Assembly: GCA_964469295.1 (NCBI GenBank)
Contig: CAYXYJ010000004.1
Coordinates: 17,557-81,556 of the forward strand
Reading direction: 5' to 3'
Length of the DNA: 64,000 bases
Origin: an uncultured Candidatus Saccharibacteria bacterium
Lineage (GTDB): Bacteria > Patescibacteriota > Minisyncoccia > Phycocordibacterales > UBA918
Positions 18,865 through 37,063 of the stretch are shown here, piece after piece; position 1 is the first letter of the stretch, and every line of letters starts with the position of its first letter. The position numbers and the translations under genes are program-made. Below the pieces are notes generated by a model, which was not told where the DNA came from, searched no databases, and saw nothing but the letters and a program-made list of their open reading frames with translations.

Positions 18865-19566
18865 CTAAAACAATTCCATGTTGTACTCCTTTGCCAAGAC
18901 TTCCAATGTGACGGCCTTATCAATCGAAAAATTTCCAACCTTTGTACGGCGTAAATTATATAATGTCGCGGGATAACCAAGTCTTTGACCAAACGCTTCG
19001 GCGAGCGAGCGAATATAGGTACCGCTACCTACTTGAAATTTAACCGTTACCAGTTGGAACTGTTTGTTATCAATGAAGAGTGCTTGGGACGTCATTAATT
19101 CGGTGGAGTAGACGTGCATGGCGCGCGCGGGCACGGGGAGCGCTTGGTGGCCTTGGCGCGCTGCGGCCCGCGCGCGCTTATACATCGGTACACCATCGAC
19201 TTTGATGGCGCTATAGGCGGAAACCGGCAGAGTGATGTCACCGTGCAGTGTGGCCAGGGTCGCGGAAATTTTTTCGGCCGAAAAAATTTCCGCCATTTCA
19301 CGCTCTGCCAACACCACCCCTTCCATATCCCCCGTACTTCGCTGTTGACCAATCAATATTTCAGCCACGTATTCTTTATCGAGTTTAACCAAAGCCGCAA
19401 GCTGCTTTGTCCACCCGCCAACGCCAACCAGCATAAGTCCTGTCGCCAGCGGATCGAGCGTCCCGGCATGACCAGCCTTTTTTACACTCAAAATCCGTCG
19501 CACGCGGGCAACGACGCCAAACGATGTCATACCGGCAGGCTTATCGATCAACAGAAGCGTTTCCAT
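18865..19566 (-). CDS. truB: tRNA pseudouridine(55) synthase
   Basis: LLIDKPAGMTSFGVVARVRR...GHAGTLDPLATGLMLVGVG catalytic Asp motif. Confidence 0.85.
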   Translation of the reverse strand: METLLLIDKPAGMTSFGVVARVRRILSVKKAGHAGTLDPLATGLMLVGVGGWTKQLAALVKLDKEYVAEILIGQQRSTGDMEGVVLAEREMAEIFSAEKISATLATLHGDITLPVSAYSAIKVDGVPMYKRARAAARQGHQALPVPARAMHVYSTELMTSQALFIDNKQFQLVTVKFQVGSGTYIRSLAEAFGQRLGYPATLYNLRRTKVGNFSIDKAVTLEVLAKEYNMELF

Positions 19567-19587
19567 ATCCGCACCAAACCCATTTCC

Positions 19588-20859
19588 CTAAAGCACCAAC
19601 AATTCGGGCGCCGTAATGAGAAGCGCACCTAAGAGCAGCATCAAGACTCCGCCAATCAGCAGCGACCAGCGCGAATATGTAGCACCATGGGCTTCAAGCC
19701 GTGTAAAGCCCCAAATCGCCAACCCAAATACAACAAAGTCGTCAATCATGTATCCTAAGGTGTAGAGCAAAATGTAGAACTGCCGCTCGACGAAAGTAAG
19801 TAAATTAAGATCAAGGATTTTCGTGTAGGCTTGCGGGATACCGATCGAACAGGCGAACTCGATAATATTGACTGAAAAGGCAATGAGAACAATCGCGCCA
19901 ATGGTCGTCAGGGTTAACGGCTGATTGATGATGGCCTTTAATTTATTCACGGTTTTCGTCTGACTATCGATATCGGTGATATCGCAGACGAGCGCTGTCG
20001 CCTGGCTCTTGTGCCAGCGGTATAAAAAGAAACTGCCCCCGCCGACCGCCAGAATGCCAACAAGTGGCGTGACGATCTGATCGAGCGCCACGAAATCCCA
20101 CGTCTTGTACCACACATTTAAAATCAGGTTGTACATGACGGCTTCGGCGACGATAAACAGTCCAGCCAAAAAGAGCATTTTGCGACGGCTGCCGGCCTGG
20201 GCCAAGAGCATCAAAAAGGTGATCAAAACCCACATGGCACATGGATTGAAGCCATCAATAAGACCAAGAAGGAGTGAGAGTGAAATGAGCGAAAATGATT
20301 TGAGATCAACCACCCCAATTACCGGCAAATCAAATGTAAACGAGGCTTCGGCGGCTGTACAGCCGATTTCGGAACAACCGCCACCAAATGGTACGACTTG
20401 CACCGGTGCCTGGGCGATATGATCTTCGACCGTGATTACGGTGGTATCGGACTGCGACTGAATCGCTTTTTCCAATTCGATTCCAGTGGTGCGAGGACTG
20501 TCAAAACCCAAAAACACTCGGTCTCCAATCACCGTCACTGGCGTTACTTTTGTCAGGTTGTGTTTGGCAGTTACCTGGTCATAGAGGTCTTTGGCAGCCG
20601 CATCCGTTTCGATATTAAGGTAGACGTAATCAATCCCCGCTCCGGTTAAAAATTCTTTTTCCGCTTTGCAAAAACCGCAAGTATCGCGACCAAACAGGTA
20701 CACGGTGGGTTCCTTACTGGTAGCCGGTACATTCATTACCTCATTCACAACTATACTGGGGTCAGTCACCGGTTCGGCTGCCGCCGAGGATACTGTCCAT
20801 CCGACTGAGATTGCTCCAAAGAATATCCACCCGGCCACCAAAACTTTTTTCGTTATCAT
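19588..20859 (-). CDS. glutaredoxin/thioredoxin-like domain fused to a polytopic DsbD/CcdA-like (DsbD_2) thiol-disulfide membrane protein
   Basis: signal/TM, CGFC redox motif, then a multi-TM domain with GFNPCAMW (Cys within TM) and a second Cys-containing TM segment. Confidence 0.45.
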   Translation of the reverse strand: MITKKVLVAGWIFFGAISVGWTVSSAAAEPVTDPSIVVNEVMNVPATSKEPTVYLFGRDTCGFCKAEKEFLTGAGIDYVYLNIETDAAAKDLYDQVTAKHNLTKVTPVTVIGDRVFLGFDSPRTTGIELEKAIQSQSDTTVITVEDHIAQAPVQVVPFGGGCSEIGCTAAEASFTFDLPVIGVVDLKSFSLISLSLLLGLIDGFNPCAMWVLITFLMLLAQAGSRRKMLFLAGLFIVAEAVMYNLILNVWYKTWDFVALDQIVTPLVGILAVGGGSFFLYRWHKSQATALVCDITDIDSQTKTVNKLKAIINQPLTLTTIGAIVLIAFSVNIIEFACSIGIPQAYTKILDLNLLTFVERQFYILLYTLGYMIDDFVVFGLAIWGFTRLEAHGATYSRWSLLIGGVLMLLLGALLITAPELLVL

Positions 20860-20882
20860 AGCGCACTCTAGTATATCAGAAT

Positions 20883-20919
20883 AACCACCGGGCGGGGGCT
20901 ACACCCCCGCCCGGTGGTT
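20883..20919. terminator. rho-independent terminator (AACCACCGGGCGGGGG-CTACA-CCCCCGCCCGGTGGTT)
   Basis: perfect 16-bp GC stem overlapping the 3' end of the DUF45 ORF. Confidence 0.6.
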
Positions 20920-21375
20920 ATTTCCCCTCTCGCCCCCGCCTGTCATCAGAGACGCAGTTTGATACGCCACCAAAGCTCCTCGACTCATTCCAATAGTTCT
21001 TTCGAGCAAACGCAATTCCTGACGATCCGCCACAAAGGTGGGGCACCAAATGGCTACTTCCTGCCAGAAAGCGGCGCCGTGATGTAAATGCCGACGATGA
21101 CACAATTCATGAATGACTACATACCGCATGAGATGTTCCGGCAAAAATAATAATTTGTAATGAAAATTCAGATTGCCTTTGGCGGAACAACTGCCCCAAC
21201 TGCGTTTGGTGTCCTTGATCGCTACACGATTATAAGTAACCCCGATCCGAGCAGCTTCAGCGGCAATAAGCGGCGCAAGCTTCGCTCGCGCCGCTTCTTT
21301 ATACGCCAAATACGCCTTGCGTTTTGGTGAGGCGTCACGAATGACCCGTCGCGTTGTCCGCCACAATCGCCGCAT
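20899..21375 (-). CDS. YgjP/DUF45-family metal-dependent hydrolase (WLM/SprT-like zincin)
   Basis: HELCHRRHLHHGAAFW zinc-binding HExxH-like motif typical of DUF45. Confidence 0.6.
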   Translation of the reverse strand: MRRLWRTTRRVIRDASPKRKAYLAYKEAARAKLAPLIAAEAARIGVTYNRVAIKDTKRSWGSCSAKGNLNFHYKLLFLPEHLMRYVVIHELCHRRHLHHGAAFWQEVAIWCPTFVADRQELRLLERTIGMSRGALVAYQTASLMTGGGERGNNHRAGV

Positions 21376-21377
21376 AC

Positions 21378-23162
21378 TTATACCGCGACCGCCTGTCGAT
21401 GATACGCTCGCACCAGTCGAATAAGATCGTAACCATACTGCTCGTCGGTCGCTTCATAGAGCGGTTTTAATTTATCGCTGCCGTGGACGGCAATGGCCTC
21501 ACAAATTTTTTTTATCGCGTGCCCAGAAACATCTAATTCAGCAATAGCTCGCTCTAAATCAGCAACTACCAAATTTCCATCTGCGACCAGTTTCTCAATA
21601 TGTTCCGCAATGGTACCAATATTAATCTCGCGATTTTTAGCGATTGACCGTAATGTCTCTCCCGCTTGCCAACGAGATTTGGTTTCTTCATAGGTTGACA
21701 GTTTTTTTGCACGTTCTTTGACCGCTCGTTTCCCGGGCAAGATAACCGTATCAGCACTTGGCAATTTCCCGCCACAACTCGTAATAAATTGCGTTTGTAA
21801 GGTAAGCAAATTGTCGTCACTCATAGCGACAAATGTATCTTCGGTATATTCAGAATCCATATGAAATTGCCTATCTCGGGTCACGACTTTTGGATCTACC
21901 TGCAGTGCATTTGGATGCATGCCCAAGACCTTTAAACCCGAAAGTGACCGCACCCGCGACAGCGCCACGTACCCCTGCCCGAACACAAACGCCTTCGATA
22001 AATCTACTTCAGCCGCATCGAGTGACATCCCCTGGCTTTTATGGACCGTGATCGCCCACGCCAGGCGAAGCGGGATCTGCTCGATTGAAGCGCGAATCTT
22101 GCCATCTTCGATGACATCCCAACTCATTGGTTCCATCAAGATTCGTCTTCCATCGAGAGTTTCAATAATCGGATGCGCATCGGTACTATTATCAAACCCC
22201 ACCACGCGCGCGAGCGTACCGTTGACGTATCCCGCTTCAAAATTATTCTTCGTACACATCACCATCGCGTCTTCTTTTACCGTCAAGGTATCCGGCGACA
22301 AGCAATTCTTCACGAGCACTTCAAGTAACGGTTTACTCCCCCGTCCCACCATCGTGTACGTTTTTGCACGTCCGGGCAACGCCGCTAATTTGGTGGCGTT
22401 CACCGCATCAACATCGGCATTGTGTGTATACAATTTCGTTGGCTCAACACCTTCGTACGCGATATCAGTCTGCTCATTCAGTAATGTGTAATGATCTTCC
22501 TCAATTTCATTGCGACGGATTGACGAGAGTAAACCGAGCAACAACTCATCCTCCTGTCGATGTTGTTCGGTCAGATAACAGACAAGCGGACGCGATTCAA
22601 GCCACGCCCGCGATTCAAACGCATAACGCATCATGTCACCTTGCCGCGTCACTGGTGGTAATTGGAAAAAGTCACCAACGAATATAACTTGTAGTCCGCC
22701 AAAGGCATCCTTTCGTTGTCTGATCGTCCGACAAATCACATCCACCATATCAAGGAGTTTCCCATCGAGCATCGAGATTTCGTCGATAACCAGCACGTGG
22801 GCTTTTTTAACTCGCTTTACGGTCGCCTCGCGACCGACAATTTGATCGAGGTCGTACTGTGTCAAAGTATCACGCGCCCCGGCGCCACTCCACGAATGAA
22901 TTGTCATGCCCCCGATATGCGTCGCCGCAATCCCGGTCGACGCCGTCACCGCGACGTGAAGCCCGCAGGCTTCAAGCCACGCGATATATTGGTTAATGAC
23001 ATACGTCTTCCCCGCCCCCGGCTCTCCGGTCAAAAAGACATTGGCACCGGTTTTTAGCACCTCTAACGCCCGCGCTTGGTTCATAGTGCCACTATCATAC
23101 CACGGCGACACAAACATTGACTTTTTTAAAAAATTGATAATATCACGGACGTCACCAACCAT
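21378..23162 (-). CDS. Pif1/RecD-like ATP-dependent DNA helicase with a C-terminal helicase-associated HTH domain
   Basis: Walker A GEPGAGKTYV, Walker B VLVIDEISM, SF1 motifs (VGDFFQLPPV, HKSQGMS), C-terminal helical HTH-like 130 aa. Confidence 0.75.
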   Translation of the reverse strand: MVGDVRDIINFLKKSMFVSPWYDSGTMNQARALEVLKTGANVFLTGEPGAGKTYVINQYIAWLEACGLHVAVTASTGIAATHIGGMTIHSWSGAGARDTLTQYDLDQIVGREATVKRVKKAHVLVIDEISMLDGKLLDMVDVICRTIRQRKDAFGGLQVIFVGDFFQLPPVTRQGDMMRYAFESRAWLESRPLVCYLTEQHRQEDELLLGLLSSIRRNEIEEDHYTLLNEQTDIAYEGVEPTKLYTHNADVDAVNATKLAALPGRAKTYTMVGRGSKPLLEVLVKNCLSPDTLTVKEDAMVMCTKNNFEAGYVNGTLARVVGFDNSTDAHPIIETLDGRRILMEPMSWDVIEDGKIRASIEQIPLRLAWAITVHKSQGMSLDAAEVDLSKAFVFGQGYVALSRVRSLSGLKVLGMHPNALQVDPKVVTRDRQFHMDSEYTEDTFVAMSDDNLLTLQTQFITSCGGKLPSADTVILPGKRAVKERAKKLSTYEETKSRWQAGETLRSIAKNREINIGTIAEHIEKLVADGNLVVADLERAIAELDVSGHAIKKICEAIAVHGSDKLKPLYEATDEQYGYDLIRLVRAYHRQAVAV

Positions 23163-23173
23163 AGGAGGTAAAA

Positions 23174-23812
23174 GTGACGAAAAAACGTAAAACTGGATTG
23201 TCCAATCCGCTGATCGATCTTTGCGCGGAGGTCTTCGGGTTGACCTCCATCACCTGTCCCCGCCGCTGCAGGCTCCCGGACGAGTACCGGAACATCGGTC
23301 TGAAGAATGTGCTTGGGGCTTGGGACGTCTGCTCTGACGTGATCAACTCCAACCAGGGCAAGTTGTACCTGCCGAAGGGCTGGGAACTGACCTTCCCTGA
23401 TACCCTGCGGATGGTGGTGGATTCTGAGCGTGGCCATCGTATGACCATTTCCGACAGCCGTGTCTATATCCATTCGCCGATCAGGGTTCAGATGAACGGT
23501 GACCTCGAGACGATGACTACCGAATGGGTCGAGGTACTGCATCACGGAGAGGTGGTCTTCCGTTCGACCATCCTGTCGTCCAAGGAACGTCCGATGGCTC
23601 CCGATGTCTACGAACTCATGAAGGAACTGGTTCCTCCGGACAATCCCTACTGGGAAAACGTGCCGGATGTTGCCATGCCCACTTCGGAAGAGGAACGGGA
23701 GCGTGCGAACTACGAGGCGTATCTGGCCCTGAAGCCGTACTACGATGAGGCCGAGGCGTTCGTTCGGGAGCACTACCCGCTTCTCAACAGGGACCCCAAC
23801 GCTTACTGGTAG
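23174..23812 (+). CDS. GC-rich hypothetical protein (ORFan)
   Basis: about 58-60% GC ORF with high GC3 in an AT-rich genome; AGGAGG RBS; the antisense ORF 23126..23773 is judged spurious. Confidence 0.4.
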   Translation: MTKKRKTGLSNPLIDLCAEVFGLTSITCPRRCRLPDEYRNIGLKNVLGAWDVCSDVINSNQGKLYLPKGWELTFPDTLRMVVDSERGHRMTISDSRVYIHSPIRVQMNGDLETMTTEWVEVLHHGEVVFRSTILSSKERPMAPDVYELMKELVPPDNPYWENVPDVAMPTSEEERERANYEAYLALKPYYDEAEAFVREHYPLLNRDPNAYW

Positions 23813-24211
23813 ATCAAGGCTCGCCAGACATTATATAGCACGACCTGGGTAGTGACGAGTTCCTTGAATCCATATTGGATTAATGTAAGTTCTTAAATAT
23901 GTACGCTCGCGTATTGAGCACCACCTGAGCCAGACATGAAAACGACAGCGATTCGCCGCATCACCCCCCTGCTACATGCATGGGGGTTTATTTTATAAAA
24001 ACATGGCTAACGACACGAATCATAATAGCGTTTTATTGACTCTTTCGTAGATATCGTTACTCTATCGTTAGATGTCCAAACCGCTTAGTTGCTAAACGGC
24101 AAACCGGTCCGCAGTCGCACACCTATCATGACCCTGCTGACGCCTTATGTTTCTGCTAAGGCCTGCACGGACGATTCCAACAACGCACACAAAAAAATGG
24201 AGGAGACTAAA

Positions 24212-27392: not shown

Positions 27393-27426
27393 TTCATTAC
27401 GTCAAAACGCAGTATACGATTTATAT

Positions 27427-27498
27427 GGTCCCATCGTCTAACGGCTAGGACAGCAGGTTTTCATCCTGCAAATCGGAGTTCGATTCTCCGTGGGATCA
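27427..27498 (+). tRNA. tRNA-Glu (anticodon UUC)
   Basis: cloverleaf folded by hand: acceptor GGTCCCA/TGGGATC, D-arm GTCT-AACGGCTA-GGAC, anticodon stem GCAGG/CCTGC with loop TTTTCAT (UUC), T-arm CGGAG-TTCGATT-CTCCG; resembles canonical bacterial tRNA-Glu; no encoded CCA. Confidence 0.85.
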
Positions 27499-29162
27499 CA
27501 AATAGAGGATAATCGGTCAGAGAAAGGTTCAAATCCTTTTTTGACCTTATAATCAAGCATATTTTTTGCTACATAGAGTTCTGAAAAGATGACACGTGCG
27601 ATGTTCTCTTTTTCGTGCGGTTTTGCATAATCGTAAACAGGCACAACGTTTTTTATCAGTTCTGAAAGAATGATAATCTCTTTCATCAGCTCTGCCATCG
27701 CTTCGTCTGATGCGCTCTCTGCCTCCTGTAGTGCTGTTAGTTCTCCCTGTAGTCGCTCACCCTCGGCAACAAGTCCCTCTGGGGTGTACACGCCTGATTT
27801 GAGTAGCTGTAAACGATTGGTATTTAAGTATGAGATGTCATCTCGAATACGCTTTTTTGTACGCTCCATCTGTTGTATCTCTCTAAAGCGACGCTCATCC
27901 AACAAAGCAACATCGGTACTGGTCCGCGCATCTAAATCAGCAAGTTCGTCATCTGTAAAATGTAGTCCTGCAATCAGTCCACTTATTTTGTTAGAGATAA
28001 AATCAAAGTTGCAGTTTTTGAGAGTGTTCTCGCAATCCTTTACGCATCGTGAATTGAAATACAGGATGCCTTTCTTGGTATATGGAGTATAAACTCGTTT
28101 ACAGTGAGCGCATCGGACCATACCGCGCATTGGGTGGTCCAGTTTTTCTGTATAGTGGACACTTACTTTCTTTTTACCCAAGAGTGATTGGACCAGATTA
28201 AATAACTCATCATCAACAAGCGCCTCGTGGCTAGTACTCTGAATATAAATGCCGTCTGGACCGATTATCTTTCCCGTATAAAACTGATTGGTCAAAATAC
28301 GGCTAATGCTATTCTCATTTACTGGACGAGTGGTTTTTTCAATCTCAATATCCTCATCCTCATCGGCGAGGATTTCATCTCGTGAGCGACGACGGCGCAT
28401 TGGTACAGTCGTAAAACCTTGGTCATTTGCAAAACGTGCAATGTCTGACAAGCTCCAGTCACCCGTTGCATATTTTTCAAACATTTCTTTTATTATCGGC
28501 GCTCGCACAGGGTCCAACGGCTTATCGTCCATACTACCGATATTTAGATACCCGATTGGCGCTCTGTAGGTACATTTTCCTTTAGTACGGCTATTTCTAG
28601 TACTCATCGTTACTTTCTCGCTAGTTACGCGAGAATGATGTTGAGCAAACATTCCATCAATATCCATATGGAGCGCACCAGCACTTGTGTCGTCATACGT
28701 AGCGTAGGCAAAACGCACGTCAATACCTCGTCGCATCAATTTGCGAATGATTGTATCGTCACCTTTATTTCGACTAATACGGTCCCAACAAAGGACCACC
28801 ACACCCTTGAAATAACCTCTGCTTAAATGTTGTAGTAGCTGTTGGAACTTTGGTCGGTCAATACGGTACTGAACCACGCCATCATCAGAAATATGTAAAT
28901 CATCTGTCTCCTTAAATCCAGAGTGCTTTTCAGAAACAACACCATCGGTACAAAAGCCCTTTAGAGTTACTGGAGCAAGTTGTAGACGTTCACGTGTCAA
29001 AAAACGCATATTCTCTACTCGTTGGTATGGGATAGAGTTCTTTTGATTATTCGCCTCGTCGGTACTTTTACGATTGTAAATAAGATAGTGGTCACTATAA
29101 ATACCGCTTTGAATAGCTTTCAGAATATCTGTCTCTATTTTCGGCTTTTTATTCATTTTCAT
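27438..29162 (-). CDS. large serine recombinase (integrase)
   Basis: N-terminal resolvase domain (IYNRKSTDE catalytic Ser, VVLCWDRISR), recombinase domain, zinc ribbon CAHCKRV...CVKDC, C-terminal coiled-coil; the last approx 20 codons overlap the tRNA-Glu gene. Confidence 0.85.
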   Translation of the reverse strand: MKMNKKPKIETDILKAIQSGIYSDHYLIYNRKSTDEANNQKNSIPYQRVENMRFLTRERLQLAPVTLKGFCTDGVVSEKHSGFKETDDLHISDDGVVQYRIDRPKFQQLLQHLSRGYFKGVVVLCWDRISRNKGDDTIIRKLMRRGIDVRFAYATYDDTSAGALHMDIDGMFAQHHSRVTSEKVTMSTRNSRTKGKCTYRAPIGYLNIGSMDDKPLDPVRAPIIKEMFEKYATGDWSLSDIARFANDQGFTTVPMRRRRSRDEILADEDEDIEIEKTTRPVNENSISRILTNQFYTGKIIGPDGIYIQSTSHEALVDDELFNLVQSLLGKKKVSVHYTEKLDHPMRGMVRCAHCKRVYTPYTKKGILYFNSRCVKDCENTLKNCNFDFISNKISGLIAGLHFTDDELADLDARTSTDVALLDERRFREIQQMERTKKRIRDDISYLNTNRLQLLKSGVYTPEGLVAEGERLQGELTALQEAESASDEAMAELMKEIIILSELIKNVVPVYDYAKPHEKENIARVIFSELYVAKNMLDYKVKKGFEPFSDRLSSICDPTENRTPICRMKTCCPSR

Positions 29163-29376
29163 TTTGTTTGACCAGTCGTCCCTCTATTATAACGTACCCA
29201 TCTTTCCTCATCCTGATGTATATAGGTTTGAGTACCTCGGACAGCTCTACCAGTGCCTTTAGCGAGCAGTCGGATAGCACCTTATTTGGGACCTTATCGC
29301 AACTCACAAAACCGCGTTGCAAATCGCTTTTTTCAAACGTACTGGTTTTGTGTAGCTCGCTCATTATCGTGTGCAA
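29149..29376 (-). CDS. small protein overlapping both neighbours; candidate recombination directionality factor/regulator
   Basis: 75-aa ORF whose ends overlap the Rep gene (13 nt) and the integrase gene (14 nt); no motif recognised. Confidence 0.3.
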   Translation of the reverse strand: MHTIMSELHKTSTFEKSDLQRGFVSCDKVPNKVLSDCSLKALVELSEVLKPIYIRMRKDGYVIIEGRLVKQNENE

Positions 29377-30545
29377 TTAGCCAAAACAGAGCGAGTAACG
29401 AGTTCATATTTTTCGATTTCGTCATCTACAAAAGCCACACCATTTGCATATGGCAAACCTTTTGTAAGTTCTGACGCTTGGTTGATTTTCTCATTTAATC
29501 GCTCTGGATGTTCTCCGTTCCAGTGACTAAATATAAGTCGGCGGAACTCTTTAACACCGTTTTCACGGATGATACAAGTCAAACCATATGCTACGAGCGC
29601 CTTGTTCATACTATGAGCGCCACCAAGCGCTTTTGCGCCCTCTACAATGCGCTGTAGCAAGCGAAAACTATCAATAGGACCAATGAGTGCTAGTTGGTTT
29701 TCTGGACGGCTAACAATGTCGCGCCACGAGTTCAATAGCACTTTTTGAGATAATCCCTCCGTAAACAGGTCCCTGAAAGCTACGTAGGTTAATGGCTTAC
29801 GGTCCATTGCAGAATTGATGTCTCGCTGTACCGTCTGGGTTTTCTTGATGCGATACTCGTAGCGAAAAATCTCCGTATGCTCTAGGTTATATTCGTCAAT
29901 AAGAGTTCGCTCATAATCAATATGACCCTTATCTTTTCGCTTCACCTTGGGTCGCATTGCATCTACTACCTTGTCGTAAAAAACTCGCTCTACGGTCCCA
30001 CAGTAGAGGTGTAATATCTGACCACCGTTTTTTGTTTCTTTGGCGGTCACATCAAATGCTTTCCCAATATCTACACGCCCAAGCTCTGCCAAAATATCTT
30101 GTAAGCGTATGTCTCTTGGCAATAGTACATTCTTGCAAAAATGAACCGCCGAAACGCGAGCGCTCGCAATAGCTTCATTTTCGATTTTGATACCAACACG
30201 TAAAAGTACATCTCTAAACACGGTCACTACTTTCCCAAAGTCCTTATCTGACACCTCTTGTAAACTGTTGCCGTAAAGTAACTTCGGTATTGAAAACTCT
30301 GCAATGAGTACGTACACAATCGTTTTATGCTCTCTATCCAGAGTTTCAAGAACATCAATTTTTGGGGTGTAGCGAGATTGATGTGGAGCTTTAAGCACAA
30401 ACCGTCGCAAATACATTCGATTTGAAAGCTGTTCAGTTGGTGAAAGCTCGTGATATTTACGGCTATATATTTCAGGCAAGAACCAATCCTTTTTTGTAAA
30501 GGTAAACTTCTTGGGTCCGTATATCTTGAGAATGACTGTATCCAT
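29364..30545 (-). CDS. replication initiation protein, Rep_trans-like (rolling-circle type)
   Basis: blocks resembling Rep_trans conserved regions (ILHLYCGTVERVFYDK... and EIFRYEYRIKK); recalled from memory, not searched. Confidence 0.4.
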   Translation of the reverse strand: MDTVILKIYGPKKFTFTKKDWFLPEIYSRKYHELSPTEQLSNRMYLRRFVLKAPHQSRYTPKIDVLETLDREHKTIVYVLIAEFSIPKLLYGNSLQEVSDKDFGKVVTVFRDVLLRVGIKIENEAIASARVSAVHFCKNVLLPRDIRLQDILAELGRVDIGKAFDVTAKETKNGGQILHLYCGTVERVFYDKVVDAMRPKVKRKDKGHIDYERTLIDEYNLEHTEIFRYEYRIKKTQTVQRDINSAMDRKPLTYVAFRDLFTEGLSQKVLLNSWRDIVSRPENQLALIGPIDSFRLLQRIVEGAKALGGAHSMNKALVAYGLTCIIRENGVKEFRRLIFSHWNGEHPERLNEKINQASELTKGLPYANGVAFVDDEIEKYELVTRSVLANCTR

Positions 30546-30591
30546 AGTGATATTCGTTGTTGTCGGTATTTTTCAAGGAAACCTCTGCTCG

Positions 30592-30858
30592 CTAGTCGGA
30601 GTAGAGTTTTGTCTTGATAGCTTTTAGATTGTCAAAGTACGACCGCGCTTTGACTTTAAGGTCGTCACTGAAAAAGCGATTGGAGGCAATCTCAATTCCT
30701 TTCTTATACTCAAATACAAACAAGACACGCCGTCCGTTTGAGCGGTCCAGATTTTGCAACTTATAACCGACAGTCAAGAGTGCTGTTGAAAGTCCCAAGT
30801 CGTATGTTGTGAAAACGTCGTCACCACTGTTCTCTTCATTGCTCTTTTCTTTATTCAT
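30592..30858 (-). CDS. DUF5659-like small protein
   Basis: TTYDLGLSTALLTVGYKL...RVLFVFE core typical of DUF5659 proteins found beside integrases in mobile elements. Confidence 0.5.
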   Translation of the reverse strand: MNKEKSNEENSGDDVFTTYDLGLSTALLTVGYKLQNLDRSNGRRVLFVFEYKKGIEIASNRFFSDDLKVKARSYFDNLKAIKTKLYSD

Positions 30859-30976
30859 AGTAATTGTTTATGTGTTAGTGCGAGACGATGTCTCATACAT
30901 AAATGGCATAAAGTTACCGAGTAAGAAAAAACACCCAGTTTACGGGTGTTTCGTCCGTTAGATTTTATTCTATTTG

Positions 30977-32227
30977 TTACTGCGAGAATGATTTGAAAAT
31001 GTCATCTGCTTCACTGGCGAGGGTTTCTGCTTTTGTTGGTTCAGTATTTTTATCCGTATACCCGATAGTCATTTTGAGTGTGTACGCTTTCTCCTTTGTG
31101 TAAGTCTTAAATGGGTCAGTATCAAGACGGAAGTAGTTTTTGAGAGCAGTTGAGAGGCGAGCTTTTTGTTGTTTATACTTATCTTTTGCTTCTGGGTCAG
31201 ACGCGGGTAGTGAGCCACCCTGTTTTGCAAGCAGTCGGAGCAGTATCCATAACTCATTGCAAACACCTTTCTTTCTACCATCAGCAAAACCCATATCCGC
31301 AAAACCTGTTTCAAGTGAATTGCCAGCAACATTGATTTTGACATACTCATCATTCAAGAACGTGAGCATTATATTTTCCCAGCGTGTACCATCAGGAATG
31401 GTGTACGGGAAACCAACTTTGGTGGTTTTATCTGGGCTAGTGTTGTTGATATTCAAGTCAATCGGCTTCTCTTGGATGCTGTTCTCAAAGCGATGGTTAT
31501 GCTCGTGCCGTATCACTTTTTCAACTATCTTTTCTGCATTTTCCTGTGTCACTTTAGGACTTTCTTTTGGTGCAATAAGCATATCCTCATTTATTTTGCA
31601 GTGTGCATAGTCAAATATCCAGCCATAGTCGTCAACAGCTCGCTCTTCAAACTCATATGAGGTTACCAAGCCAATTTCGTGTAGACGTTCAATTGCAATT
31701 CGGCGGTAGTACGGGAGATTTACATCATCAGGAGCAGGGTCATAGTTCGATAACGTAAGATTATCTCCCATTGGATACTCATACGTCACACCTTTGATAC
31801 GTATTTTGTTGTATTCATTCTTAAAAAAGTTCACCGCTTCCATTAAATAATCAGTTGATGTCTTACCCTTTTGTGTAAAATCTACCGCCACTTTTTCGGT
31901 ACTAAAACTATCAACCTTTTCGAGCATATAATAATCACCGTTCCCCACAAGAGTGAGGTCTTTGATATATTGTTCCTGCTCCAATTTCTGCAAAATCCGC
32001 CGATGCTCATTCCTTGTTAAAGCTGTCCACTCTTCTGGATTATCAGGATGCCCGACACTGGTGACGTGATACCGAATAGGTCCCTTTGGGCTTATCAAAG
32101 TTTCACCGTCTATATTGTCTTTTACATACTGTATTTTTTCTTCGGGCGACATAATATATTCATTTTCATACTCATCAAAAGCAATGCCTTTAATATGGCT
32201 TATTGTAAAGGTATTATTATCTTTCAC
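30977..32227 (-). CDS. hypothetical protein (416 aa), first gene of the leftward island operon
   Basis: long ORF; no recognised motif. Confidence 0.4.
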   Translation of the reverse strand: MKDNNTFTISHIKGIAFDEYENEYIMSPEEKIQYVKDNIDGETLISPKGPIRYHVTSVGHPDNPEEWTALTRNEHRRILQKLEQEQYIKDLTLVGNGDYYMLEKVDSFSTEKVAVDFTQKGKTSTDYLMEAVNFFKNEYNKIRIKGVTYEYPMGDNLTLSNYDPAPDDVNLPYYRRIAIERLHEIGLVTSYEFEERAVDDYGWIFDYAHCKINEDMLIAPKESPKVTQENAEKIVEKVIRHEHNHRFENSIQEKPIDLNINNTSPDKTTKVGFPYTIPDGTRWENIMLTFLNDEYVKINVAGNSLETGFADMGFADGRKKGVCNELWILLRLLAKQGGSLPASDPEAKDKYKQQKARLSTALKNYFRLDTDPFKTYTKEKAYTLKMTIGYTDKNTEPTKAETLASEADDIFKSFSQ

Positions 32228-32322
32228 AAGGTGCTTGCATTTTTGTGAATATATTGTATATTACTTTCTGAAAGAACCCTCGTCGTGGAGGTCTCACGAA
32301 GTTCAATAAGACGGAGGAATAA

Positions 32323-32862
32323 ATGTCCGACACATATGGTTCGCAAGAAGCCCAAGACCTCATCACCTTGGAGGTGAAGGTCGAAGGTTATGACAATTGG
32401 CGCGACGCTTTCGCTGAAGAAGTCGAGCTTTCGGGAACTTGGGCAAAGGAAGCGGGGAAAAGCAAAGCTTCGTTGCTCGAAGCGTGCGATATCACTGCAC
32501 GTCTGAACCGCATTTCCCGAGAGGTTGAATACTTCTCGACCCTCATCAATATGGGCTATGCCCTTGAAGAAGCTGTTGTCACCTTCGACAACGACAGCTG
32601 GGGCAAGTTCGGGAAATGCACGTGGATTAAGGACCATACGTCGTACTCTGACCCCGAGGTCTTCTGGCGGAAGGTGGTTCCTGAAGCATCCGATTACTCT
32701 GTGTCCCTCGTTGCCGCCTGTTTCAACACGGAAAACGCGGGCGAGCAGAAAATCACGCTGTCCTCGGTCGCTATCAGCTCTGGCTTCCTCTTTCACAAGA
32801 CCCTTCGTTTCCACCGTATGGTTTTTTCAAAACCGAAGGAGAAAGAAGCAGTCGCCGCCTGA
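32323..32862 (+). CDS. GC-rich hypothetical protein (cargo)
   Basis: GGAGGAATAA RBS, elevated GC, downstream hairpin plus T-run; the antisense ORF 32224..32814 is judged spurious. Confidence 0.4.
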   Translation: MSDTYGSQEAQDLITLEVKVEGYDNWRDAFAEEVELSGTWAKEAGKSKASLLEACDITARLNRISREVEYFSTLINMGYALEEAVVTFDNDSWGKFGKCTWIKDHTSYSDPEVFWRKVVPEASDYSVSLVAACFNTENAGEQKITLSSVAISSGFLFHKTLRFHRMVFSKPKEKEAVAA

Positions 32863-32967
32863 TTGGTCCTATCGCCTTGAAGCCGTCTCGGTTTCGAGGC
32901 GGTTTCTTTTTTATATAACAAACTCTTGTAGTATTTGTATGTTTGATTTGATGTACTGCCTCTCTTT

Positions 32968-32999
32968 ATAAAGTTCTGAAAGCCACGCTAATGGGTCAC
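32968..32999 (+). repeat. island repeat copy 1 (left half only): ATAAAGTTCTGAAAGCCACGCTAATGGGTCAC
   Basis: seen directly; 32/32 identical to copy 4. Confidence 0.8.
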
Positions 33000-33047
33000 C
33001 AATTAGAGAGCTGGTTCGAGCACTCGAGAAGGCTCGAATCTCGAAAC

Positions 33048-33077
33048 AAAAAACTACTCAGATCTGAGTAGTTTTTT
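33048..33077. terminator. bidirectional terminator (AAAAAACTACTCA-GATC-TGAGTAGTTTTTT)
   Basis: perfect hairpin with flanking A/T runs. Confidence 0.7.
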
Positions 33078-33666
33078 GTTATTAGCTCACAATACTTTCA
33101 TCAACCATAATTAGCTGGACGAGCCAGTCCAAGTTCTTCAACATAATCTCTCTTATCATTAGATTCACCCTTCACGATATCAAAAGAGATGTCGCTGATA
33201 CACACGATATTGATTTAGTGTATTTTGACAATATAAACATAGATGAAGAAAAAGACAGAAAACTTTCAGAGAGTATGAAAGGTGCTCTTGGCCTTGATTG
33301 GGAAATAGTTAATCAAGCTTACACACATAAATGGCACGACAGAGACACTCCGTATACGAACACTGCAGAAGGGTTGTCAGAGTGGGTAGAAACACCTACT
33401 TGCGTTGGGTGACACTAGAGAACGAAGAACCAAAGATAGTAGCTCCTCACGGGATTGATGACCTCGTTAACTTGATAGTTAGACCAACTCCAAGTCGGAA
33501 AGGTGATTTGAGTATTTTTTACAAAAGAATTGAGAGTAAAAAATGGTTAGAAAAGTGGCCCAAACTACGAGTGGTTACTGAAAGAAGATAAGAAACAAAA
33601 TCAAGAACTATATGAAAACCCCGACAGACTTGCGTCTATCGGGGTCCCCCCCTGACGGTCAGACCG

Positions 33667-34080
33667 TCAAATCACGATATCGACCGGGGAGATGCTCCAC
33701 CCCATCACACCTTGCGGAACGAGGTCGGCTTTCTTGCCCTGCTTGGGGCGAGTGCCGAGTCGGTCACGCAGGTACTGAAGCAGGCTGTTTACTGCCTTCT
33801 TGTGGGTCTTCTTCTCGCCATCGGGGAGGATGTAGTGGAACGCAATGTAATGCGTGCCATCACCGCCTGCACCACGGATGTGGAGGTCAACCCAACGTTC
33901 GGGCGTGCGAGACTTCATTTCGGAAATGAAGTCAGCGAGCTTCTCGATGGACACCGAAGCGTCGAACTTCACGGTGCCAGCGACATGGTGGTCACGGTTC
34001 AAAAGAGCAGTCATCAGTTTCTCCCATAAACGTGGAGGGTACGCATAATCGGGATTGACTATGCTTTTTTTTAATATCAC
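33667..34080 (-). CDS. GC-rich hypothetical protein (cargo)
   Basis: approx 58% GC ORF; the antisense ORFs 33612..33929 and 33712..34029 are judged spurious. Confidence 0.4.
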   Translation of the reverse strand: MILKKSIVNPDYAYPPRLWEKLMTALLNRDHHVAGTVKFDASVSIEKLADFISEMKSRTPERWVDLHIRGAGGDGTHYIAFHYILPDGEKKTHKKAVNSLLQYLRDRLGTRPKQGKKADLVPQGVMGWSISPVDIVI

Positions 34081-34160
34081 ACTTTTGCGTGTTTTGCAAG
34101 CCCTCGCCTATACCAAACTACCAAGCAAAACAATGCTACTTTTAATATATTCTCGGTCCT

Positions 34161-34253
34161 TATACAGTTCTGAAAGCCACGCTAATGGGTCACAAAGTAA
34201 AGAGCTATAGTTATCGAGGTATTTCAGGGCACCTTACTGGGAGTTCAGAACTC
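34161..34253 (+). repeat. island repeat copy 2 (full approx 93-nt dyad unit: left half 34166-34193, imperfect inverted right half 34219-34253)
   Basis: seen directly; followed by a TGTATAAT -10-like box 8 nt upstream of ATG at 34275. Confidence 0.8.
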
Positions 34254-34274
34254 TTTATTGTATAATTTTACTAT

Positions 34275-35066
34275 ATGGAAAATATGCCAATAGTAGATGA
34301 ATTTGTTGCACCGAAAAAGAATGTTTTATTTGAAATGACTACTGTATCAAAGACACTCGCTGCAATTTTATTCATTTTGATGCCATTCGTAGGTGGCTAC
34401 ATCGGATTTAAAATAGCAAATTCTATAAAAGCGACGCCCGTTATTGAGGTGCCGACCATAACAGATACAACCGCTGTTTCAGAAGTAAAAATCTTGCGAG
34501 TCAGAGGAGAGTCTATGTCTAACAGAATGTTAGCCTACTGGTGTAATGAGTCCGACATAAACTGTCTGCAACACAAATCTTCCGTTCCTAACGATTCAGT
34601 AGACGTTACTGCCTTGTATGCAGAATCTGCAACAAGTACATACTTGCTAGATTTACTTTACATATCAGAGTCAACTTCTAAAGCTTATTTTAGAACGGCA
34701 AATGAACGAGACGAAGTTGTAGGTCTTGTTAGTTTTGATATGAACACAAAATCTATTATTAATGCAGATGAACTATATGGAGAACTCGAAGCAATGGATA
34801 TTGCATATGATGGTCGTTACATTGTGTTTGCAAACAAAGAACGAAATGAAGTGCTTGTATCTGACCTTGAAAAGGGTGCACTTATAAATAAGGAAAAAGT
34901 TACAGGTGGAACACTCCAAAAATCTAACTGCGATCCCGCATTAAAACCTGCTGATATAACACTCACATATAACTATCAGGTGCGTTTTCAAATCTACTCT
35001 AGTGAGTTGACTAGTAGTTGCGAATACAAGCCAACTGCAGTTGGCAACTTCCCAATTACACACTAA
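34275..35066 (+). CDS. membrane-anchored/secreted hypothetical protein (263 aa)
   Basis: N-terminal TM helix (LAAILFILMPFVGGYIGF); no SD, so possibly leaderless. Confidence 0.4.
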   Translation: MENMPIVDEFVAPKKNVLFEMTTVSKTLAAILFILMPFVGGYIGFKIANSIKATPVIEVPTITDTTAVSEVKILRVRGESMSNRMLAYWCNESDINCLQHKSSVPNDSVDVTALYAESATSTYLLDLLYISESTSKAYFRTANERDEVVGLVSFDMNTKSIINADELYGELEAMDIAYDGRYIVFANKERNEVLVSDLEKGALINKEKVTGGTLQKSNCDPALKPADITLTYNYQVRFQIYSSELTSSCEYKPTAVGNFPITH

Positions 35067-35137
35067 TTAATTTATGCGTAATCCTTTAAACAGATTTTTA
35101 ATGAAATGATACTCCGCTTAATATTTTCTCTTTCTAG

Positions 35138-35230
35138 ATAAAGTTCTGAAAGCCACGCTAGTGGGTCACAACATAAGAGCTATATTTACCAACGTATTTC
35201 AGGGCACCATAATGGGTGTTCAGAACTTTG
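35138..35230 (+). repeat. island repeat copy 3 (full dyad unit; terminal inverted repeats AAAGTTCTGAA / TTCAGAACTTT)
   Basis: seen directly; one substitution (CTAGTGGG) relative to the other copies. Confidence 0.8.
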
Positions 35231-35243
35231 ATATACTTTTCCA

Positions 35244-35714
35244 ATGAATAGGGACGTTTGTTTCGTTGCATTCAATAACACCATAGCTGCTAAAGTGCTG
35301 TCTCGTCTTTCCCAATTTCAGACCTATACAATTGAGAGTGATTTTTCTTCATTGGCTGATTTTGTAAAAACAGCGGATGTTTTGGATGCAAAATACATCA
35401 TTGGTCTTGGACAATACTCTGGGAGAGATAGAGATATGCTACGCATCGAGACCCGATGTAATAAAAACTTTAGAAACAATCCGATAGAAAAATCTAATAA
35501 GTTACAATTGGACGACATTCTTACGTTGACAGACAAATCCAAGCGAGCAACTGGTCTGGGTAACTCCTGGTGCAATCTCATATCTGTAATGATGCTAAAC
35601 AACACAAAGCGCAACTACTTATACGCATTCATACATATACCAAAAAACTTCAATCCTAAAGTCGCTGCAAAAGAGATACTTGAGATGCTTCCAAACAATC
35701 TTGTAGTTCGATAA
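35244..35714 (+). CDS. short peptidase C15 (pyroglutamyl peptidase I)-like protein
   Basis: GLGQYSGRDRDMLRIE (Glu region) and GLGNSWCNLI (catalytic Cys region) resemble Pcp motifs; shorter than canonical Pcp. Confidence 0.35.
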   Translation: MNRDVCFVAFNNTIAAKVLSRLSQFQTYTIESDFSSLADFVKTADVLDAKYIIGLGQYSGRDRDMLRIETRCNKNFRNNPIEKSNKLQLDDILTLTDKSKRATGLGNSWCNLISVMMLNNTKRNYLYAFIHIPKNFNPKVAAKEILEMLPNNLVVR

Positions 35715-35742
35715 TGCTTTGATGGATAGTTACTCTATCCTC

Positions 35743-35774
35743 ATAAAGTTCTGAAAGCCACGCTAATGGGTCAC
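35743..35774 (+). repeat. island repeat copy 4 (left half only)
   Basis: seen directly. Confidence 0.8.
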
Positions 35775-35781
35775 TAGTATA

Positions 35782-35807
35782 GAAAATGCGCCCTTGGGCG
35801 CATTTTC
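35782..35807. terminator. bidirectional terminator (GAAAATGCGCCC-TT-GGGCGCATTTTC)
   Basis: perfect 12-bp stem. Confidence 0.7.
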
Positions 35808-35895
35808 TATTTACAAGCTTCAAAATCAAACAATTTCGGAAACTTTTTTACTTACAGTAATCACATAAGCAATACTGGGAATGCTTGAGATGGAT

Positions 35896-36883
35896 TATCT
35901 AAAATCCTGCATACTTACCTTTCCTGAAACGCTTCCTTGCTCGAGCAAGGTGATGAACGCTTGTTCACGGAGATTGGCTTCTTCATCAATACACGCTTTT
36001 TTGGTACTGACTCCCTGACCAAAGACCACACTGTCGCCTTCAATACTGTATTCGCCGACAATATTGTTGCAACAAAATTTGCCATATAGCGACCATCGGC
36101 AAACGTAATCGTGCCACCGTTATAACTCACCCCTTTTCCGTCGAGAGATGATACCCCTGTGTCAGCATTTGTTGTCGCTTCGGCTTCGATGTCTACAGAC
36201 ATGGTGCCGTCAGCATTAAATCCGTTTTCTACCGTACAGGTATGACAAATGCCATATTTGTCTTTCCAGACCTTGTTTTCAGCATCAAAAACGATATCGT
36301 TTTCTTTGCCGTTGATTGAGGTGATGTTGACCAAGGTATATTCGTAGGCACTCGCGTCAGCGGGAACATTGGTCTTTTCCTTCCGTTCTACTTCTATTAC
36401 GTAGGAATTACCCTCTATATAATCAAAACCGGCAATAGTATCGTAGAACATTTCGTTATTTATCATCAAACACTTTTGTGGACCAACACCAACACAATCA
36501 ACTTTTTCTGGACCGACGTTGAACGTCAGAGTATCGGCTGTGGTAGTTGCGTCACGTTCGGTGGTAATGAGCTTTGCTCCTTCAGCGACTGTTTCACCAT
36601 TGATTTCTAGTGATGCTTCACCTTGATGTTCCCAAAAAACCACACTTTCGTCTTTATTCGTGTAGCGGGCTCCCGACCAAGACACGACTCGATCGAGTTC
36701 ATATTGTTGACCATCAATAGTCACGGTCGCGGTGTCACCATCATTGCTGTACGCCACGGCAAAATGCGTATCGGCAGTTGCAAAAACAAACGAATTGTCT
36801 TCGGTGGTAGTAGTGACAGTTTTTTCTTTGGTGTTTTCCAGCAAATAGTATCCAGCCACTAGAAATGCTACTATCCCGAGCAT
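35896..36883 (-). pseudogene. MliC-like plus META (HslJ-like) domain membrane/lipoprotein gene, interrupted by a 1-nt frameshift in an A4/T4 homopolymer (approx 36075-36078); either a true pseudogene or a sequencing error
   Basis: the ORF-track frame (35915..36883) ends in nonsense, while the +2 frame from about 36080 to 35896 reads as a clean META domain (GKFCCNNIVGEYSIEGDSVVFGQGVSTKKACIDEEANLREQAFITLLEQ); one extra T/A would join the frames. Confidence 0.45.
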
Positions 36884-37063
36884 TAAAAGAATTATTTTTT
36901 ATAGTTACAATTTGATTACAGTTATTACGCGCCTTTATCTTATCTTAGCAAATTTGTTCGGCCGGCACTAAATATTTTCACTGTACGATATTGAAAATCA
37001 TAAAATTAATTCCCTGTATGTCATTTTTGTTTTAGTCTGTCGTGCTTATTTTTCGACGCAAAA

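Follow-up and report, generated by a model that had tools for sequence, protein, structure and literature searches.

SSV-type (Sulfolobus spindle-shaped virus) archaeal integrases target tRNA genes and carry the attachment site attP within the integrase gene; they are tyrosine recombinases, and the gene is split into two non-functional parts. Staphylococcal cassette chromosome (SCC) elements, with their Ccr serine recombinases, insert at the 3′ end of the conserved gene orfX/rlmH and form tandem stacks with and without a recombinase. In the integration-dependent immunity of cluster G, N and P mycobacteriophages, which insert at a tRNA gene, the repressor gene contains attP and its product has its C-terminus replaced on integration (PMC9262239); these phages use a tyrosine integrase, the tRNA is restored through a 35-bp common core, and the repressor loses a degradation tag (PMC9262239). 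Prochlorococcus tycheposons are tRNA-targeted, carry replication genes and cargo and occur in tandem forms, with a large serine recombinase in 27 of 937 and tyrosine recombinases with partial tRNA repeats in most (bioRxiv 10.1101/2020.12.28.424599). Here we analyse an element integrated at a tRNA-Glu gene in a 64,000-nucleotide (nt) stretch of DNA, hereafter the window, from an uncultured Candidatus Saccharibacteria bacterium (contig CAYXYJ010000004.1, positions 17,557 to 81,556). Most likely it is an integrative rolling-circle replicon of about 5.5 kb, with attP inside the gene of its large serine integrase (int; protein, Int), a reusable junction at the tRNA and a stacked array beside it. 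Searches of the literature turned up neither a serine integrase with attP embedded in int nor one whose C-terminus depends on integration state.

Results

An integrase gene that ends inside tRNA-Glu

The intact tRNA-Glu(UUC) gene on the plus strand (27427-27499 by ARAGORN; 27427-27498 by Rfam, 58.6 bits) is the sole Rfam match across the whole window; this gene is where the element integrated, and it supplies the B arm of attL. The int open reading frame (ORF; 27438-29162, minus strand) enters it by 62 nt, and the final 19-20 codons (..CDPTENRTPICRMKTCCPSR) are the reverse complement of tRNA-Glu. A first-pass annotation of this DNA had proposed an integrated mobile element here, with a large serine integrase whose last 20 or so codons are antisense tRNA, and both points are borne out. 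Since an open stretch of 20 codons arises by chance with a probability of roughly 0.4, it is ordinary in isolation; the overlap is meaningful because the same junction recurs in many loci and protein clusters. Scanning one genome per species gave 80 int loci; about 45, from Patescibacteria, have a tRNA-Glu gene (UUC or CUC) overlapped by the 3′ end of int, and in loci L048 and L073 the overlapped gene is tRNA-Leu and tRNA-Ala, respectively. Among the 120 best Int clusters the C-terminus is antisense tRNA-Glu (..CDPT[GE]NRT..) in 79 and a conserved native tail (..CDP[ILT]AWLSEL.. plus about 20 residues, for a total of 582-605 amino acids (aa)) in 23; four end in the tail of a second integrase family, two in the antisense of another tRNA, and 12 are of other kinds or truncated.

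Int is 574 aa long when integrated, residues 1-557 being encoded by the element and the last ~17-19 by antisense tRNA. It matches the Pfam families Resolvase (PF00239, E 2.7e-14) and Recombinase (PF07508, E 3.8e-13) and the PHROG integrase family phrog_95 (E 2.9e-57). The catalytic-domain residues Y29, R31, S33 and D35 are invariant among 27 homologues, and the zinc-ribbon cysteines C351, C354, C373 and C377 are likewise invariant among homologues; the Pfam Zn_ribbon_recom model matches just one homologue. More than 1000 homologues were found, mostly in assemblies of Patescibacteria (Candidate Phyla Radiation, CPR), at 58-98% identity over the full length. Both Int and the family of the putative replication initiator (Rep) encoded beside it are absent from IMG/VR, and INPHARED and PLSDB hold only distant relatives, at less than 27% identity.

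Proteins 53-68% identical to Int also occur in assemblies labelled Sphingopyxis, Kordiimonas (including the isolate K. aestuarii JCM 17742), Chitinophagaceae and others; the non-CPR records include L017, L018, L024, L026, L032, L065, L067 and L071. Most of these proteins have the native tail and lie in contexts resembling integrative and conjugative elements (ICEs), with a TrwB-like ATPase, DUF932 and RadC. L024, a contig of a metagenome-assembled genome labelled Gammaproteobacteria, has a tRNA-Glu-fused Int and may be a mis-binned CPR contig.

Native tail copies as attachment sites

Six-frame searches located the native tail four times in the window, always on the minus strand and attached to no ORF. 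The first copy, t1 (32911-32999), comprises the P arm and an open 28-codon continuation of Int (DPLAWLSELYKERQYIKSNIQILQEFVI, then a stop) and is the attR of the core element; t2 (34108-34193), t3 (35072-35169) and t4 (35656-35774) end units 1, 2 and 3 of the adjoining array, t4 being the outermost attR. Together they form an 82-nt direct-repeat family with the core ATAAAGTTCTGAAAGCCACGCTAATGGGTCAC, and each continues the ..DP reading frame into LAWLSELY.., with a stop 27-38 codons on. A fusion of Int at residue 557 (..CDP) with t1 is 583 aa long, in agreement with the length of the native-tail homologues. Other CPR loci have a single native tail 3.5-10 kb upstream of int, usually directly after a host terminator hairpin, and these lone tails are the attR sites.

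The native tail is conserved across phyla. All 18 unattached tails taken from different loci are open for 27-38 codons, and their other two frames are, with few exceptions, closed within 2-20 codons. Over the distal tail (codons 10-26) of these 18, differences at codon positions 1, 2 and 3 amount to 0.51, 0.40 and 0.66, compared with 0.74 at all three positions after the stop, a substitution pattern that indicates moderate selection on the peptide. Selection of this kind makes sense only for a tail that becomes a translated part of Int, once the element has been excised or stacking has occurred. The reconstructed int 3′ end also contains the motif TTTCAGAACT twice in direct orientation (window 27566-27586 and the tails; repeat family D2). 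One copy specifies ..IFSELY.. and lies some 100 nt upstream of the other, which is in the tail and specifies ..WLSELY..; the motif is conserved at synonymous positions in both places across distant loci and may be a second DNA-level signal.

Crossover interval and element boundaries

attL reads GGGATCAC, and GGGTCAC is present in all four tails. In the full forms, attL has ..CCGTGGGATCAC joined to AAATAGAGG, and ..TAATGGGTCAC precedes the junction in four of four tails; attL and the attR copies have only (GGG)TCAC in common, and long direct repeats are absent. The host-specific A70 remains with the tRNA, and the exchange therefore takes place to its right, inside TCAC (27496-27499; tRNA positions 71-73 plus C74), which forms the left junction of the element. 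The first-pass annotation had proposed looking for a 2-bp crossover; the crossover is mapped here to the 4-bp TCAC interval, not to the exact 2 bp.

Comparison with two other loci fixes both ends of the core element, which accordingly spans 27500-32999 (about 5.5 kb; the element of L002 is similar at 5.3 kb). The window and L001, whose Int is 98% identical, differ strongly ahead of the tRNA (identity 0.24), less across the tRNA body (0.74) and hardly at all starting with the base that follows TCAC (0.99); t1 and the L002 tail are 0.82 identical up to TCAC and 0.28 past it. At the far side of the array, t4 adjoins a hairpin (35775-35812) that aligns at ~86% with the trailer found directly after tRNA-Glu in L167 and L109. 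Since this trailer is of the native type, host DNA (the B′ side) resumes at 35775 and the right boundary is 35774. A cargo array annotated earlier as reaching 36900 thus exists and is punctuated by att-type repeats, with its end at 35774; a 322-aa MliC/DUF4377 gene beyond the trailer hairpin is outside the element. The half of the target on the host side shows little conservation and is rich in A (TCACAAa....AAAaa), and the int-side sequence likewise begins TCACAAA, both of which are consistent with most of the target specificity residing in the tRNA half.

Several further features surround this target. In ten loci (L167, L109, L197, L108, L097, L161, L133, L143, L156 and L171) an inverted copy of the tRNA 3′ end (GTGATCCCACGAG.., sometimes out to ..GAGAATCGAA) comes after the trailer hairpin; the hairpin of the window has no such copy. 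Downstream of the intact gene, the 3′ half of tRNA-Glu (T arm and acceptor) is partly duplicated in direct orientation in L187 (tRNA orientation, ~2115-2137, with a second match in L109), L117 and L124. Direct copies of this kind are the signature expected of tyrosine-integrase islands, so that elements of other types also seem to use this tRNA. Elsewhere in the window, positions 19000-24000 have a G+C content of 0.48-0.53 against ~0.43-0.45 in the remainder; this region looks like host core genes and not another island, because 22000-23086 is conserved at ~68% in L003 and L004.

Occupied and empty sites

The FAD-oxidase gene to the left of tRNA-Glu is conserved at 64-70% aa identity in many contigs. 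Five of these loci (L097, L143, L090, L135 and L171) are empty sites, with this context and the terminator hairpin directly after the tRNA, and L171 shares window genes on both sides, the FAD oxidase on one and a 327-aa protein and a Mur ligase on the other. The first-pass annotation had suggested a search for the empty site in a related genome, and syntenic relatives do have empty sites. In L001 the FAD-oxidase context is 70% identical and the tRNA-Glu is CUC. Its host is a different species, and the module of Rep, the 75-aa protein and Int is 96% identical to that of the window at the DNA level, over 27426-30584 only; set against the 70% identity of the neighbouring gene, this value supports transfer between species.

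Integrase-less units and stacking

Between t1 and t4 lie three units without an integrase, each with a left end that follows TCAC immediately, then a short cargo and lastly a tail. Unit 1 (33000-34193) has a left end at 33000-33044, a hairpin at 33045-33080, an NTP_transf_6 fragment at 33331-33591, a 137-aa ORF at 33667-34080 (minus strand) and t2. In unit 2 (34194-35169) a left end at 34194-34252 is followed by the gene of a 263-aa membrane-anchored protein (34275-35066, plus strand) and t3, and in unit 3 (35170-35774) a left end at 35170-35227 is followed by a 156-aa gene (35244-35714, plus strand) and t4. The left ends of units 2 and 3 are 87% identical over 53 nt (repeat family D3), and their genes of 263 aa and 156 aa are unrelated. 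The left-end sequence of unit 1 (CAATTAGAGAGCTGGTTCGAGCACTCGAGAAGG and the hairpin) is found directly after tRNA-Glu in eight metagenome contigs, three of them with the FAD-oxidase context. No homologues of the unit cargo genes were found in any fetched locus. The match of the 86-aa ORF at 33331-33591 to Pfam NTP_transf_6 (E 5e-12) is confined to the final 50 positions of the model; this gene fragment suggests decay of the unit 1 cargo.

Solitary units exist as well. In L187 a 680-bp unit begins with a left end of the unit 2 type, carries a single gene (149 aa) and closes with a tail. It separates TCAC from a hairpin that adjoins the tRNA directly in L197, L108 and L136; in the pair L187/L197 this integrase-less unit is thus present or absent exactly at TCAC. 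A 1.28-kb unit lies at tRNA-Glu in L110.

L031, from a complete Nomurabacteria chromosome, has two elements stacked at tRNA-Glu. From the tRNA outwards, the order is a second large serine recombinase (544 aa, 24% identical to Int and also ending ..CDPTGNRTPICRMRTCCPSR), a helix-turn-helix gene, the gene of a 793-aa beta-helix protein, a different tail (EEILTLARTYFEQN) and, fused to this tail in frame, a 570-aa Int of the window family. Therefore, the newcomer was inserted between the tRNA and the resident, and the resident Int took the newcomer's tail. This arrangement supports array growth by repeated insertion adjoining the tRNA and suggests that attL-type junctions can serve as targets. Related configurations are a tail fused to a second int-like 3′ end in L036, two tails in L030, and extra tails downstream of full-length Int in the Bacteroidota loci L057, L061 and L068.

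The second recombinase belongs to a distantly related family (24% identical; 536-544 aa) built on the same plan: the gene runs on at its 3′ end into tRNA-Glu or ends within tRNA-Gln, and the protein has a native tail of its own, ..ILTLARTYF... Members occur in L031 (15127-16761), L122, L099, L138 (junction aaaacgagactt..) and L208 (3096-4706); in L208, at tRNA-Gln, the same Rep family lies beside this second integrase type.

Other genes of the core element

The 75-aa, 393-aa, DUF5659 and 416-aa ORFs are present as first annotated; the operon described there as running leftward from int in fact lies at higher coordinates, on the minus strand and transcriptionally upstream of int. The 75-aa protein (29149-29376, minus strand; 71 aa if translated from M5) is encoded by a gene overlapping the int start, and its homologues lie directly upstream of Int in 33 loci, including non-CPR ones. 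Its C-terminal ~45 aa are conserved; no family match was obtained, and a match to ICEBs1 Xis was non-significant. It is a candidate directionality factor or regulator.

The 393-aa protein (29364-30545, minus strand) is the putative rolling-circle initiator. A profile search over 1.84 billion representatives found 951 relatives. Of 68 distant relatives compared with Pfam, 20 match PF05144 (Phage_CRI, the gpII N-terminal domain; best 1.8e-10) and three match PF02486 (Rep_trans; best 5e-5); among 38 close relatives there are two weak PF05144 matches. Invariant in the family are Y190 (in FYDK), E230, K138 and N139, which are putative active-site residues. The AlphaFold 2 (AF2) model is confident (predicted local distance difference test, pLDDT, 90.6); Foldseek found no match to it in the PDB and unnamed viral proteins in BFVD (E 3.9e-7, TM 0.50). 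The earlier label "Rep_trans-like" therefore holds at the superfamily level (gpII/Rep_trans) and by transitive profile evidence only, the protein itself having no direct Rep_trans match.

The DUF5659 protein (88 aa; 30592-30858, minus strand; PF18903, E 2.7e-8) is found in 14 related loci. The 416-aa ORF (30977-32227, minus strand) is followed by a terminator at 30952-30928 and probably starts 25 codons later, at 32152 (M26), because its homologues are 390-394 aa long; the protein would then have 391 aa. Its AF2 model is weak (pLDDT 66), and structural matches were limited to non-significant ones to winged-helix proteins; it may be built of winged-helix modules, and a fold assignment was dropped because of the weak model. 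A 179-aa ORF (32323-32862, plus strand), with its own terminator at 32871-32903, is a probable gene with no family match in Pfam, PHROGs or PADLOC. Over 32150-33100 only small inverted repeats were seen. PHROGs, NCBIfam and PADLOC gave nothing useful on the unlabelled proteins of the element. The suggestion that the 416-aa and 393-aa proteins are a likely site of novel defence found no support in PADLOC: nine proteins compared with its defence models gave no match below E 0.008 and are not placed in any known anti-phage system.

Discussion

The observations fit an integrative replicon whose integration interrupts its own recombinase gene. The core (27500-32999) is inserted at the last bases (TCAC) of tRNA-Glu, and encodes Int, a small partner, a putative initiator of the gpII/Rep_trans type, the DUF5659 protein and two proteins of unknown function. 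attP lies within the int 3′ end, the P′ arm being the coding sequence up to ..CDP and the P arm the last ~26-36 residues (AWLSEL..). With attP inside int, integration leaves Int without its native tail and with an antisense-tRNA ending instead. If attL then recombined with a tail site, presumably by the action of Int, the excised circle would again encode a 583-aa Int, and we infer that this circle replicates by the rolling-circle route. The predicted circle junction reads ..TCTATTTGTGACCCATTAGCGTGGCTTTCAGAAC.., with Int passing from ..TCCTCTATTTGTGA into CCCATTAGCGTGGCTTTCAGAAC, and likewise with tails t2-t4; the site left by core excision is predicted to join CCGTGGGATCAC to CAATTAGAGAGCTGG, and the fully empty site CCGTGGGATCAC to TAGTATAGAAAATGCGCCC. 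Since most of the specificity would be held by the tRNA half, the tRNA-proximal junction of a resident element should be reusable. Newcomers would then enter between the tRNA and older elements, and the three units without an integrase (33000-35774), with a tail copy closing each, would be the resulting array. The simplest history of the window has unit 3 arriving first, followed by unit 2, unit 1 and finally the element with the integrase; had the circles instead joined into a co-integrate ahead of integration, the map would be identical.

Several points count against this reconstruction. The median ratio of non-synonymous to synonymous substitution (dN/dS) in the tail is only 0.56, and the first nine tail codons are conserved at synonymous sites too, as expected of a protein-binding DNA arm, so that part of the conservation belongs to the DNA level. 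The unit left ends begin like the int 3′ end (AAATAGAGG compared with AATTAGAGAG or AAGTAAAGAG; one copy has antisense FEPFS..SSLIGDP), and these alignments score within the range of shuffled sequences and are not significant, which leaves a derivation from int only suggestive. In non-CPR hosts Int retains its native tail within chromosomes, where no clear target junction is seen; tRNAs lie 3.5-8 kb downstream of the full-length Int in these loci, and no int-like junction is found at them. None of the small contigs carrying Int or Rep is demonstrably circular, and neither a circular nor an excised junction was seen. The 393-aa protein itself has no direct match in Pfam, NCBIfam or the PDB, its link to Rep being transitive. 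Lastly, the reuse of attL as a target is non-canonical for large serine integrases.

Some of these points would suit an ordinary integrative element in which attP lies by chance next to the int end, the exchange of C-termini is without function and the tails inside the array are decaying remnants of elements whose integrases were randomly deleted. The tRNA-encoded endings, 6 to 20 aa long, look unselected, the unit left ends are not significantly int-like, and the type-A left end persists like a scar in relatives with the same flanking genes, with degraded variants in L102 and L093. Against it stand the open frames and codon-periodic substitutions of the unattached tails, the conservation of the native tail across phyla and short units with both ends kept precisely, and we regard this account as possible, if somewhat unlikely. 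A different emphasis would make the locus an integron-like capture platform, on which Int inserts and excises small circular one-gene cassettes with an attP-type site, at the int-embedded site or at the tRNA junction, the array being a gene pool in active exchange and not a pile of dead elements. Units of 0.6-1.2 kb with about one gene each, related ends around unrelated cargo in units 2 and 3, the solitary units of L187 and L110 at tRNA-Glu and the extra tails of the Bacteroidota loci would all be understandable in such a system; yet no cassette was found in two different arrays, there is neither an attC-like folded site nor a tyrosine IntI, and decay in place explains the presence/absence polymorphism equally well. 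This explanation thus appears unlikely. By type the locus falls outside the integrons, its recombinase being a serine enzyme and its repeats coding-tail att sites, not attC.

The gpII-type initiator invites comparison with a prophage of filamentous, inovirus-type phages, for which such initiators are typical. The element is small, relatives of the 393-aa protein match Phage_CRI, and integration into tRNA genes is common for such phages. Against this identification, which we consider highly improbable, neither Pfam nor PHROGs revealed a morphogenesis (pI/Zot) ATPase or coat-like genes that would place it in this group, the Int and Rep families do not figure in IMG/VR, and the relatives in phage databases are the distant ones mentioned above.

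For the self-interrupting replicon, it is tempting to speculate that the tail swap acts as an in-built sensor of state: a full-length, AWLSEL-tailed Int would be made from the excised circle alone, the tail altering its activity, direction or stability, and the reusable junction would let one-gene units hitch-hike, making the system a serine-recombinase counterpart of the integron at tRNA-Glu. We offer this idea tentatively and with considerable doubt. If true, it would parallel the use of a C-terminal tag in integration-dependent immunity, and if the tail matters, it would represent a new way of coupling integrase activity to integration state. Stacking at one junction, for its part, challenges the usual view of a serine-integrase attL as inert. 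Mobile elements of Patescibacteria are poorly known and genetic tools for these bacteria are lacking; a very large Int family that targets the final bases of tRNA-Glu, and in some relatives tRNA-Leu or tRNA-Ala, offers simple, precisely mapped and ready-made att sites for experiments.

Among known systems, the large serine integrases of phages and ICEs (phiC31, Bxb1, A118, SPbeta SprA, TnpX) share with Int the domain order of catalytic serine domain, recombinase domain and four-cysteine zinc ribbon; as in those systems, attL and attR share few bases and a small adjacent protein could be the directionality factor. The window element differs from them in its target, a tRNA 3′ end, in the position of attP inside int, in a protein that is not the same when integrated and when free, and in a tRNA-proximal junction that appears reusable, its identity to phage and plasmid members staying below 27%. 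SCC elements resemble it in their serine recombinases, insertion at a gene 3′ end and tandem stacks; Int gives weak matches to NCBIfam CcrB and CcrC (41 bits against a cut-off of 900), and, unlike SCC, the window element has no ccrAB pair, uses another target gene and belongs to another host phylum. Tycheposons are likened to it by description; an int-embedded attP is not described in the passages of that preprint that were consulted. The integration-dependent immunity of mycobacteriophages comes close in design, with the difference that the window element cuts int itself, by means of a serine integrase, and that no degradation tag is evident in it. With SSV-type integrases it has in common an attP within int and a tRNA target, and, in contrast to the two non-functional parts left in that case, about 97% of the window Int stays intact and conserved when integrated.

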